Positions 1,917 through 4,911 of a DNA stretch of 30,775 nucleotides are shown piece by piece (the stretch's first letter is position 1; each line of letters starts with the position of its first letter). Source of the DNA: a virus (lineage: Duplodnaviria > Caudoviricetes); IMG/VR virus record IMGVR_UViG_3300010354_000364, positions 1 through 30,775 of that record. One strand, written 5' to 3'. Made by a program: the position numbers and the translations under genes. Under the pieces are notes generated by a model, which did not search any database, was not told the origin of the DNA, and was given only the letters and a program-made list of their open reading frames with translations.

Positions 1917-2238
1917 CGATCTCTCCTTTCTGAGTTACATCCACTTTAACAGGAATATACATGCGCTCGCGGCGGTCCCACTTCAACGCAGTGTAGCGGC
2001 CAGAGTTGAAAAACGCAGCAATAGAGCAGGCCAACCCTATCGCTACGGGGTCACCTGTCAGCAACAGGTAATCTTCATCAGAAAACTTGCGTAGCTTGGT
2101 ACGCATGCTCCTTATGGTCGGTGCAGTGCTGAAGGCAATCTGATTGTACGGCGGAAGCAGTACCTTCATTTCGCCAAACTTCATTGCGGGGGCAATGTCG
2201 TGATTCGGCATCTCTTGAACTACATATACGGTTGACAC
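1909..2238 (-). CDS. Small alpha/beta phage protein, first gene of the leftward early operon
   Basis: 109 aa, GTG start, RBS AGAAAGGAGAG at 2246-2256, just downstream of a sigma70-like promoter; motif DYLLLTGDPVAIGLA. Confidence 0.7.
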   Translation of the reverse strand: MSTVYVVQEMPNHDIAPAMKFGEMKVLLPPYNQIAFSTAPTIRSMRTKLRKFSDEDYLLLTGDPVAIGLACSIAAFFNSGRYTALKWDRRERMYIPVKVDVTQKGEIDE

Positions 2239-2269
2239 GTTTTCGCTCTCCTTTCTTCAAACGTGCTTT

Positions 2270-2305
2270 TAGTGTACACTATCTTTCAAGGTTGTCAACA
2301 ACCTT
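2270..2305. promoter_or_regulatory. Two dyad-symmetry elements (putative operators)
   Basis: Perfect palindrome TAGTGTACACTA (2270-2281) over the -10 box, and inverted repeat AAGGTTGT-ca-ACAACCTT (2288-2305) over the -35 box. Confidence 0.5.
2271..2298 (-). promoter_or_regulatory. Sigma70-like leftward promoter
   Basis: Minus strand TTGACA (2298-2293), 16-nt spacer, TACACT (2276-2271), in the divergent intergenic region. Confidence 0.7.
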
Positions 2306-2326
2306 TTTTAAGAAAGGAAGAAAGTT

Positions 2327-3781
2327 ATGGATTATTTTTTAACGCGCTACCCCTTCAAGAACAAGCCTTTTCTCCATCAAGCGGCGTATTTACAGCGTTT
2401 CTGGGAGGACAAAGAGGCTGCTGTCTTGGCTGAAATGGGCACTGGAAAGAGCTTTATGCTCATAAACAACGCCGCCATGTTGTACGACAAGGGGCGGATA
2501 AATGCCATGTTGATTGTGGCTCCCAAGGGCGTATACCGTAACTGGTATACCTCCGAAATCCCAAAGCATATGCCGGATCACGTCCAGTACACCATGGCCT
2601 GTTGGTCCCCCTCCCCCCGTAGGGCGGAAAAGGAGGAAATGGACAGAATGATGATGGCAACGGATACGTTGCGGATTCTGATCATGAATGTGGAGGCGTT
2701 TAGTACGGAAAAAGGCATGTTGTTTGCCCGTACTTTCCTACGGGTAACTGAGGCCTTTATGGCTATTGACGAAAGCACAACCATCAAGACGCCTAACGCC
2801 AAGCGGACAAAAGGCATCATCAAGGTAGGCAAGGAGGCGCGGTACAGGAGAATTGCCACGGGCTCCCCGGTGACAAAAAGCCCCCTGGACTTGTTTAGCC
2901 AGTGTGAATTCCTTGGTGCTGATTGCCTTGGATACCACAGCTTTTATGCATTTCAAGCCCGGTACGCGATCCTTATGGAACGCCGCATGGCAACCCACAC
3001 CTTTAAGCAGATTGTGGGCTACCGCCACCTCGAAGAATTGCAGAAAAAGCTAAACAACTTTTCCTTTCGCGTTACCAAGGAAGAGTGCCTGGACCTGCCT
3101 GAAAAAGTGTTTGTTCGCAGGGAAATTGAGTTGACCCCAGATCAGAAAAAGTACTATGACCAGATGAAGCTAATGGCGCTGGCTTTGTTTGAGGACGGTT
3201 CTGTCATGACCACCAACAACGCCCTGACACAGCTTATGCGTCTGCATCAGATTTGCTGTGGGCACATCAAGTTGGATGATGGGCGGCAAGAGGACATCCC
3301 CAGCAACCGTGTTAAAGAGCTACTGGATCAGATCGAGGAAGTGGATGGCAAGGTCATCATCTGGGCAACCTACCGCCGGGATATTGAAAACATCCGCCTA
3401 GCTCTGCAAAAAGAGTACGGCATGAATTCTGTTGCAACCTACTTCGGGGATACCGAGGCCGAGGAGCGGCAGCAGATTGTCACTAACTTTCAGAACCCTG
3501 ACCATGAGCTTCGTTTCTTTGTTGGCAACCCACGTACTGGTGGTTACGGACTGACGCTCACAGCGGCTAAAACGGTGATCTACTACAGCAACAACTTCGA
3601 TTTGGAAGTCCGGCTGCAGTCCGAAGACCGCGCTCACCGTATCGGGCAAACCAACAAGGTGACCTACATCGATTTCATCAGCCCCGGCACAGTTGATGAG
3701 CACATTGTCAAGGCGCTTCGTAACAAGATCAACATTGCCAACGCTGTGCTTGGCGAAGAACTCAAGGAATGGATTAAATAA
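2327..3781 (+). CDS. SNF2-family (SF2) helicase/ATPase
   Basis: Motif I AEMGTGKS, II IDESTTIK, III ATGSP, V GGYGLTLTAA, VI QSEDRAHRIGQ; RBS AGAAAGGA at 2311-2318. Confidence 0.93.
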   Translation: MDYFLTRYPFKNKPFLHQAAYLQRFWEDKEAAVLAEMGTGKSFMLINNAAMLYDKGRINAMLIVAPKGVYRNWYTSEIPKHMPDHVQYTMACWSPSPRRAEKEEMDRMMMATDTLRILIMNVEAFSTEKGMLFARTFLRVTEAFMAIDESTTIKTPNAKRTKGIIKVGKEARYRRIATGSPVTKSPLDLFSQCEFLGADCLGYHSFYAFQARYAILMERRMATHTFKQIVGYRHLEELQKKLNNFSFRVTKEECLDLPEKVFVRREIELTPDQKKYYDQMKLMALALFEDGSVMTTNNALTQLMRLHQICCGHIKLDDGRQEDIPSNRVKELLDQIEEVDGKVIIWATYRRDIENIRLALQKEYGMNSVATYFGDTEAEERQQIVTNFQNPDHELRFFVGNPRTGGYGLTLTAAKTVIYYSNNFDLEVRLQSEDRAHRIGQTNKVTYIDFISPGTVDEHIVKALRNKINIANAVLGEELKEWIK

Positions 3782-4527
3782 TGCAGCTTGTCCCAATCAG
3801 AAATAAGTTTGTCTACCCCAAGCTCAAGCGCGTAGACCTGCCCACGGGCCGCGTTTATACGTTGGATGGCACGGACCCCGTTCCAAGCGTCACCACCATC
3901 CTGTCAGCAACCAAGGACCGTCAGCATCTAGATGCCTGGGAAGAGCGCATTGGTAAGGAAGAAGCCAACCGCATCAAGAACGATGCTGCCACGGTGGGCA
4001 CGCACATGCACTCCGTGGTTGAACGCCTGCTGTTAAACAGACCGCTGGAAACACCGCGCACATGGTTGCAGATTAAGGGCTACCGAATGGGCTACCTGTT
4101 GATTGAAAGTTTTTTCCACAATCTGCAGGAAGCGTGGGGCACGGAAATCCCCCTGCTGTACCCGGGCCGATATGCTGGGACATCGGATTGCATTGGTGTG
4201 TACAAGGGCAAGCCCTCCATCATCGACTTTAAGCAAGCCAATCGCATGAAGAAGCGGTCATGGATTGATGATTACTTTGTCCAGCTTGCTGCGTATTCCG
4301 AAGCGCACAACAAACAGCACGGGACGGAAATCAATCAGGGCGTGATCCTGATGGTGTCACAGGACGGAGAAGTGCAGGAATTTGTGACCGTTGGCAGGGA
4401 ATTTGATTCGTACCGGGACGCATGGTGGCGCAAGGTCGAGGATCACGCAAAAAGGAGCCCGGAACACGGTCCGGGCTCAAATGCCAGTGTGGGAGAAAGG
4501 ACACAAGAGTCACACGGCAACTGCTAG
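3781..4527 (+). CDS. PD-(D/E)xK exonuclease (RecB/Cas4-like fold, phage type)
   Basis: PSVTTIL, GTHMH, E-x-P-L, AGTSD, IIDFK and YFVQLAAY motifs; TAATG coupling to the helicase. The last ~25 aa look like a non-conserved extension. Confidence 0.88.
   Translation: MQLVPIRNKFVYPKLKRVDLPTGRVYTLDGTDPVPSVTTILSATKDRQHLDAWEERIGKEEANRIKNDAATVGTHMHSVVERLLLNRPLETPRTWLQIKGYRMGYLLIESFFHNLQEAWGTEIPLLYPGRYAGTSDCIGVYKGKPSIIDFKQANRMKKRSWIDDYFVQLAAYSEAHNKQHGTEINQGVILMVSQDGEVQEFVTVGREFDSYRDAWWRKVEDHAKRSPEHGPGSNASVGERTQESHGNC
4449..4478 (-). terminator. Rho-independent terminator ending the late (minus-strand) region
   Basis: Minus strand GAGCCCGGA-ccgtgt-TCCGGGCTC-c-TTTTT, a 9-bp stem plus U tract about 50 nt after the last late gene. 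Confidence 0.8.
4482..4519 (-). ncRNA. Candidate structured 3'-UTR RNA with an anti-Shine-Dalgarno loop
   Basis: Minus-strand stem TGCC-GTGTG / CACAC-t-GGCA closes the 19-nt loop ACTCTTGTGTCCTTTCTCC, immediately 5' of the terminator. Function is inferred only. Confidence 0.4.
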
Positions 4528-4530
4528 TTT

Positions 4531-4911
4531 CTATTCGAGGTTACGAAGCTTGTAGATGACTGATAGATATGTTTCGATTGCGGTATCTATCAGGTTCTGA
4601 ATAGCGGTGTCGGACTTGTCGCATGCTCTGTACCGCAGGTCTTCAACAGAGTTCATGTGGCTTTCAAGGATTGTTGCGGTTGCTGCAATTGTCTTTTTCC
4701 CTTTTGGGCATTCCAGACAAGGAATGTCGTCCATCAAGCCATACATGCCTTGATAGGCTTCTGCTATCGAATCGGCGTTGTCGATAATGTCATCATAAAA
4801 TGATCCAAGCGCCATATGAGCAGCAAAACTGCCCGGGCCCGTTACCGCCAAGTGGCGACGATGAGCAAATTCACGGCTTAAAAACAAAGTTGCGATAAGT
4901 TGTTCCATCAT
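4531..4911 (-). CDS. Dps/ferritin-like four-helix protein
   Basis: AHRRHLAVTGPGSFAAHMALGSFYDDIIDNADSIAE parallels the Dps signature H..HW.V.GP.F...H...E..Y......D.IAE; ATGA overlap with the upstream gene. Confidence 0.7.
   Translation of the reverse strand: MMEQLIATLFLSREFAHRRHLAVTGPGSFAAHMALGSFYDDIIDNADSIAEAYQGMYGLMDDIPCLECPKGKKTIAATATILESHMNSVEDLRYRACDKSDTAIQNLIDTAIETYLSVIYKLRNLE

Follow-up and report, generated by a model that had tools for sequence, protein, structure and literature searches.

The late (virion) operon of the uncultured aquatic podophage analysed here ends in a hairpin followed by a terminator, and comparison among relatives indicates that this unit is a real conserved RNA element. 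The whole stretch of DNA studied, 30,775 nucleotides long and referred to below as the window, represents about half of the phage genome (CheckV estimate 50%), complete relatives being 61–62 kb. In the reading that we prefer, to which we give a probability of roughly 45%, this module of hairpin and terminator on the late strand would be a broad anti-Shine-Dalgarno (anti-SD) translational repressor carrying a UCUCC loop. An exposed loop complementary to ribosome binding sites (RBSs) makes the element a likely small RNA (sRNA) that blocks translation, and in sharing the terminator of an mRNA and having a conserved, predicted accessible seed it has the features of a 3' UTR-derived base-pairing sRNA. 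Its parts in the window, listed 5' to 3' along the RNA, are these:

4521..4524, minus strand: GCAG directly 5' of hairpin 1, conserved (in 20/33 clusters of relatives and in the element alignment)
4482..4519, minus strand: hairpin 1, with an outer stem in which the 5' arm (4519-4511) pairs with the 3' arm (4491-4482), as given by the fold and by two-sided changes in relatives
4492..4510, minus strand: pyrimidine-rich loop of 19 nt, with the clade-conserved seed UCUCC at 4496-4492 and, in the window only, UCCUUUCU at 4501-4494
4479..4481, minus strand: U-rich linker (UUU) from hairpin 1 to the terminator, as given by the element fold
4448..4478, minus strand: intrinsic-terminator-like stem (4478-4455) and U-tract (4454-4448) at the end of the late operon

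The original prediction had described two adjacent hairpins, a 19-nt loop on the first and then the terminator, and the minus-strand fold agrees with that description. Measured against shuffles, the fold of the whole 86-nt element has a z-score of -3.6, and hairpin 1 by itself one of -1.75, with 11 of 200 shuffles equally good. The predicted probability that the loop is unpaired is 0.98 in the isolated element and 0.90–0.93 in local folds; accessibility is low in one 500-nt global fold, where the loop is paired to coding sequence lying upstream. The U-richness of the linker is not specific to the element, because U-rich stretches also precede the terminators of early operons.

The replication module of the phage is divergent, with a primase gene and genes resembling gp34, gp33 and gp32 of Pam3 pointing leftward, and helicase and exonuclease genes pointing rightward and converging on the long leftward virion operon. 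The open reading frame (ORF) at 570-1346, earlier labelled SSB, is Pam3 gp34-like according to Pfam. Among the closest annotated exonucleases are those of DSL-LC04 (54%) and Pelagibacter phage HTVC027P (40%). Contigs related to the phage were found in bins of Armatimonadetes, Verrucomicrobia and Gammaproteobacteria; these bins are unrelated to each other, and we judge the assignment unreliable. Two genes meet at the element:

3781..4527, plus strand: exonuclease gene (phrog_298), the unconserved C-terminal tail of which spans the entire RNA element
4531..4911, minus strand: last late gene (DUF5856 / phrog_858), replaced by other genes in most relatives

Since the plus strand has no U-tract at the element, the helicase-exonuclease mRNA would overlap it, and the exonuclease message's 3' end would be antisense to it. 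In many relatives the late operon is closed by small lysine-rich ORFs of about 52 aa with a YPNLVDNMRAA motif at the end (for example L004:5753-5914), which is the usual arrangement; the two that were tested gave no Pfam match.

Viral, metagenome and genome contigs were scanned for relatives, and 127 loci with an exonuclease identity of at least 63% and 250 nt of downstream sequence were kept, 91 of them distinct at the junction. Three junction boundaries were reset by hand, and one locus (L350) was placed in the group without a terminator. A minus-strand terminator is present at 85/91 distinct junctions and absent at 6/91. Within 55 nt upstream of the terminator, CUCC occurs at 69 of the 85 junctions and is unpaired at 65, while it is missing at 16; the CUCC of at least one locus (L339) looks incidental. 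In 33 clusters formed at 70% identity, CUCC is found in 28 and unpaired in 26, where dinucleotide shuffles lead us to expect 11.2 and 5.8, and a control spacer after the gp34-like gene has CUCC in 5/27 clusters and unpaired CUCC in 1/27. The commonest 5-mer is UCUCC (23/33 clusters). In its usual form the element runs from GCAG through a stem of ~7 bp, a bulge on the 5' side and an inner stem rich in G to the loop, followed by a U-rich linker and the terminator. When 36 elements picked from the 69 with CUCC were aligned by MAFFT, 84.8% of cells were paired compared with 35–57% when slid, and two-sided changes appeared at 5/7 outer, 3/4 inner and 8/9 terminator pairs; as the structure was named from these same sequences, the controls are biased towards it. 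With a covariance model we obtained 61 matches in 100 sources, each of them on the minus strand at the junction of late operon and exonuclease, and none in DSL-LC04 or in a distant clade, which lacks the element. Where the CUCC, the terminator or the element is missing, the GGAGA RBS of the 185-aa gene persists, a point against the reading that we prefer. A scan of viral contigs with a 14-base pattern returned 120 stretches, only one of which lies beside an exonuclease relative. Alignment across relatives had been named as a check on the original prediction, and its outcome is divided: hairpin and terminator are conserved and the stems covary, but the loop 8-mer is not conserved and does not covary with the RBSs.

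It could be argued that the terminator alone matters and that hairpin 1, loop included, has been inherited without having a function, given the z-score of hairpin 1 by itself, its loss in several lineages of a quick exonuclease tree, and the relatedness of the loci. We consider this most improbable, as the loop word persists across the tree on stems of unrelated sequence, and the control spacer has its unpaired counterpart in a single cluster.

Of the two strands, the late one is most likely to be functional. Better folding is seen on the minus strand in 22/28 clusters and on the plus strand in 6/28; the window's own element folds better on the plus strand (-30.5 versus -27.8). In an alignment fitted to the minus-strand fold, G-U exceeds A-C in every helix (31:17, 30:8 and 34:17), which favours the minus strand, as does a U-tract found on that strand only. 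If the function lay on the plus strand, the GGA motifs of the loop might form, at the 3' end of the mRNA for helicase and exonuclease, a site of the CsrA/RsmA type, or conservation would reflect coding constraint on the exonuclease tail. These folds, and a contig from an RNA library that spans the element from the exonuclease side, are consistent with such a role. However, the part of the exonuclease beyond residue 220 (window 4441-4527, plus strand) is an unconserved read-through over the RNA element that varies among relatives in sequence and in length (7 to 29 residues), and GGAG lies outside the exonuclease ORF in 14/28 clusters and in two frames in the remainder; all in all, a plus-strand role seems quite unlikely to us.

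A further possibility is that the loop acts in cis, folding back on the last late gene's SD to damp translation of that gene. The last gene of the window does have GGAGG, and cis pairing is predicted above 0.2 in 3/24 clusters, but it is predicted at 0.00 in the window; moreover, starts of the last gene have GGAGA in 3/27 and GGAG in 7/27 cases, and this gene is exchanged freely while the element remains. We therefore find regulation of the last gene very unlikely, and cis pairing and coding constraint are both disfavoured on these counts.

The complementarity on which the original prediction was built concerns three early RBSs:

1924..1931, minus strand: RBS AGAAAGGA(GAG) of the 185-aa Pam3 gp33-like gene, a candidate target; GGAGA in 59/59 loci
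2249..2256, minus strand: RBS AGAAAGGA(GAG) of the 109-aa Pam3 gp32-like gene, a candidate target; GGAGA in 41/64 loci
2311..2318, plus strand: RBS AGAAAGGA of the helicase, which would pair only with the loop of the window; GGAGA in 0/67 loci

All three exact complements of the loop were located where they had been claimed, at the RBSs of the 185-aa, 109-aa and helicase genes. With both strands of the window counted, AGAAAGGA occurs exactly four times, and the fourth copy, at 4494-4501 on the plus strand, is the complement of the element loop. It is the sole 8-mer common to at least three of the 32 start regions called in the window. Other complements of the loop, of 8–9 nt, lie at four unrelated places in the window. 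On the loop side, UCCUUUCU is identical to part of the common 3' tail of 16S rRNA (a tail estimated in about 52,000 stored genome stretches and confirmed in seven named genomes), and therefore AGAAAGGAG is an extended Shine-Dalgarno sequence. Neither this identity nor the position of the element within the exonuclease ORF figures in the original prediction. Elements in general share longer words with the 16S tail than their shuffles do (5.24 versus 4.65, with a maximum of 5.18 in 200 shuffles). For the longer match to AGAAAGGA in the window, the best reading is that mimicry of the 16S tail has been extended in this lineage.

The early/late split of RBSs in these phages is real, because AGAAAGGA is confined to early genes and TAAGGA is favoured by late ones in four genomes. 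With crude gene calls made by script, AGAAAGGA stands at 21/122 early and 0/153 late starts, which bears out the claim that late RBSs lack the 8-mer, and TAAGGA at 3/122 early versus 20/153 late starts. Three complete relatives (G156, G157 and G158), taken over their first 60 kb and on both strands, hold 18 copies of AGAAAGGA, and every one is the RBS of an early gene, most often in the form AGAAAGGATAG. From the same calls, GGAGA is also biased to early starts (21/122 versus 8/153 late; P 0.0015), while GGAG of any kind is not (40/122 early versus 40/153 late). Early starts are also the better partners of the 16S tail itself (P 2e-9), so that any mimic of the tail would lean to early genes. 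Duplexes formed by cognate loops did not separate early from late starts significantly (P 0.13, 0.50 and 0.069).

These data allow a narrower reading in which the loop has been tuned, in this phage, to the early AGAAAGGA RBS and selectively silences replication genes. The restriction of the motif to early genes argues for it, as does the finding that its RBSs make three of the five best loop duplexes among the 32 starts of the window. The fourth copy falls exactly in the conserved loop; UCCUUUCU arises in 1.3–1.5% of loop shuffles, with 0.09 occurrences expected over 33 clusters, so the match, for which chance had been raised as a caveat, is not trivially accidental, but the window was picked because of it. 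Against specific tuning, an early RBS is in view at 67 loci; of these, 59 have AGAAAGGA, and one of the 59, the window, has UCCUUUCU in its element. Nor does permutation show loops to favour their own phage's RBSs over RBSs of relatives at the 185-aa, 109-aa, helicase and gp34-like genes (P 0.62, 0.23, 0.20 and 0.45, respectively), and since the 8-mer equals the 16S tail, tail mimicry explains both the loop side and the RBS side. We consider specific tuning unlikely. Of the early-gene silencing switch first proposed, then, the conserved element and the early-only motif hold up, and the 8-mer in the loop and its covariation with RBSs do not. Judged across these loci, a switch based on the exact 8-mer fails as a clade-wide mechanism. 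A looser version survives, in which UCUCC would pair with the early-biased GGAGA that every one of the 59 loci has at the 185-aa gene; the conserved UCUCC seed finds no match in AGAAAGGATAG, the main early leader.

Another issue is whether the partner of the loop is an mRNA start at all. It might instead be an RNA-binding protein of the host or a G-rich host sRNA (the element serving as a sponge or decoy), or the loop may contribute to the stability of the 3' end of the late mRNA. Partners of this kind would suit a short loop that stays fixed on changing stems next to a terminator, and a lack of covariation with targets, and pairing with an SD leaves the conserved 5' GCAG and the frequent bulge on the 5' side unexplained. 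However, the conserved word is precisely anti-SD, its likeness to the 16S tail exceeds that of shuffles, and the nearest families in Rfam are RBS-directed sRNAs. We rate a partner other than mRNA starts, or a stability role, as rather unlikely.

At cut-off, Rfam gave no matches in the window or in 16 loci of relatives. The best match is RF02278, the toxic or double-hairpin sRNAs of Betaproteobacteria, with 26.2 bits for the window and 26.8 bits for one relative (L312), against a gathering threshold of 50. As described for RF02278 and for ncS03, ncS05, ncS27 and ncS62 of B. cenocepacia (PMC5688073, PMC4603805), these RNAs have two adjacent hairpins, as does the phage element, and both have CUCC in the first loop, a U-rich linker, a GC terminator with a U-tail and a length of 60–90 nt. 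The phage element also has the combination of a first hairpin with a CU-rich loop, a short linker and a terminator that characterizes the family. It differs in its longer, bulged first stem and its location in the 3' UTR of a phage late operon. YGUCUCCU opens all eight bacterial matches that we folded, whereas phage elements begin with GCAG and a stem; with scores of ~26 bits versus 50, and without the single-stranded 5' YGUCUCCUC, we do not assign them to RF02278. The phage model matches 15/151 Burkholderiales genomes, and 7 of the 12 loci inspected are RF02278 members over the cut-off. It also matches 12/151 Alphaproteobacteria genomes at similar scores, and homology to RF02278 is unproven because this control was matched at a similar rate. 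The bacterial double-hairpin RNAs are reported to be expressed and to have predicted RBS targets (PMC5688073), and the phage element may, by analogy, work as they do without belonging to the family.

The cuckoo RNAs of Alphaproteobacteria (Cuckoo / CcsR / ar14), according to PMC4615179, likewise present a fixed anti-SD loop on variable stems, and their RSs0680 cluster is described there as co-transcribed with the upstream gene and then terminated. In contrast to their two to four adjacent hairpins, each with CCUCCUCCC, the phage element has one loop, with UCUCC. The single loop, a commonest word of UCUCC and no Rfam match at cut-off lead us to reject membership in this group too. Loop-displayed pyrimidine seeds proposed to cover an SD are also described for CJnc190 and for staphylococcal RsaA and RNAIII (PMC12205990); these are chromosomal and have tested targets, and we found no sequence relation between them and the phage element. 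Among phage RNAs, PreS of lambda and VpdS are reported to pair with host mRNAs, VpdS also with phage mRNAs, and to aid the lytic cycle (bioRxiv 10.1101/2024.10.31.621285); they come from temperate phages and have specific seeds, and a generic anti-SD loop at the end of a virion operon is not described in what this source offers on them. Together with PMC10611076 and PMC9599517, the literature covered at the level of titles and the opening parts of abstracts, with most subscription journals outside the search, held no description of the element or of an anti-SD late RNA in these phages.

Promoters were scored with E. coli sigma-70 frequencies. On this scale the window has nothing promoter-like ahead of the element (percentile 0.51), and scores upstream of the element have a mean percentile of 0.65 and are high in about 10/33 clusters. 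A sigma-70-like promoter, TTGACA-16-TACACT, lies elsewhere in the window, at 2271-2298 (minus strand) in the divergent early spacer. Two RNA runs (X1 and X2) hold phage sequence as contigs only, which carry no information on strand, ends or level; their pieces cover 4498-4801, ending in adapter-like letters, and 4237-4539.

Other arrangements occur at the same junction. One lineage (L025, L031, L322, L331 and L337) is without the CUCC hairpin and has a different conserved word before the terminator. It also has a promoter-like TTGACA-17/18-CANAAT, kept in L331 and L337 after loss of a small basic gene; within that gene, TTGACA may reflect Val-Asp codons. At the L379 junction there is no first hairpin; after an extended -10-like TGGTATACT come a CU-rich stretch that is single-stranded and then a terminator, an arrangement that appears closer to a stand-alone sRNA. 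In a different place, the spacer that separates the primase from the gp34-like gene, 20/53 loci share a structured motif of GGGG-GAAAGCGGAUGCUG ... GCAGCGAGUA-CCCC with a variable insert (for example L014:1694-1797, minus strand) that has no match in Rfam; the window's counterpart (520-569) is a plain terminator-like hairpin.

Under the broad repressor model that we prefer, the UCUCC loop would pair, once the late operon is transcribed, with GGAG(A)-type RBSs of early phage mRNAs and of host mRNAs. In four Burkholderiales genomes, with crude starts, SD usage in 227 long ORFs runs to GGAGA 14, GGAGC 11, GGAGG 7 and GGAGT 6, counts that we set neither for nor against the model. The RNA, ~75–100 nt long, would be processed out of the late mRNA or, in certain lineages, transcribed from a promoter of its own; it would pair in trans, might make use of Hfq and could affect timing. 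We count it against the model that a seed of 5 nt is short. A bolder hypothesis, which we regard as possible but doubtful, ties the element to a division of podophage RBSs into early ones, with AGAAAGGA and GGAGA closely complementing the 16S tail, and late ones with TAAGGA. The late transcript would end in a mimic of the 16S tail that shuts off early and host translation, an early-to-late switch made of RNA only and buffered early by the mRNA for helicase and exonuclease, with its antisense 3' end.

As a covarying RNA family the element is uncatalogued; it belongs to a large clade of uncultured podophages of ~60 kb that have DSL-LC04 and HTVC027P among their relatives, and it places a known working kind of RNA in a new setting. 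Because the RBSs divide so cleanly into early and late, repression is testable with reporters in laboratory strains even where no host is cultured. If GGAG(A) RBSs are indeed repressed, a generic anti-Shine-Dalgarno RNA would serve an apparently lytic phage as a means of redirecting ribosomes late in infection.
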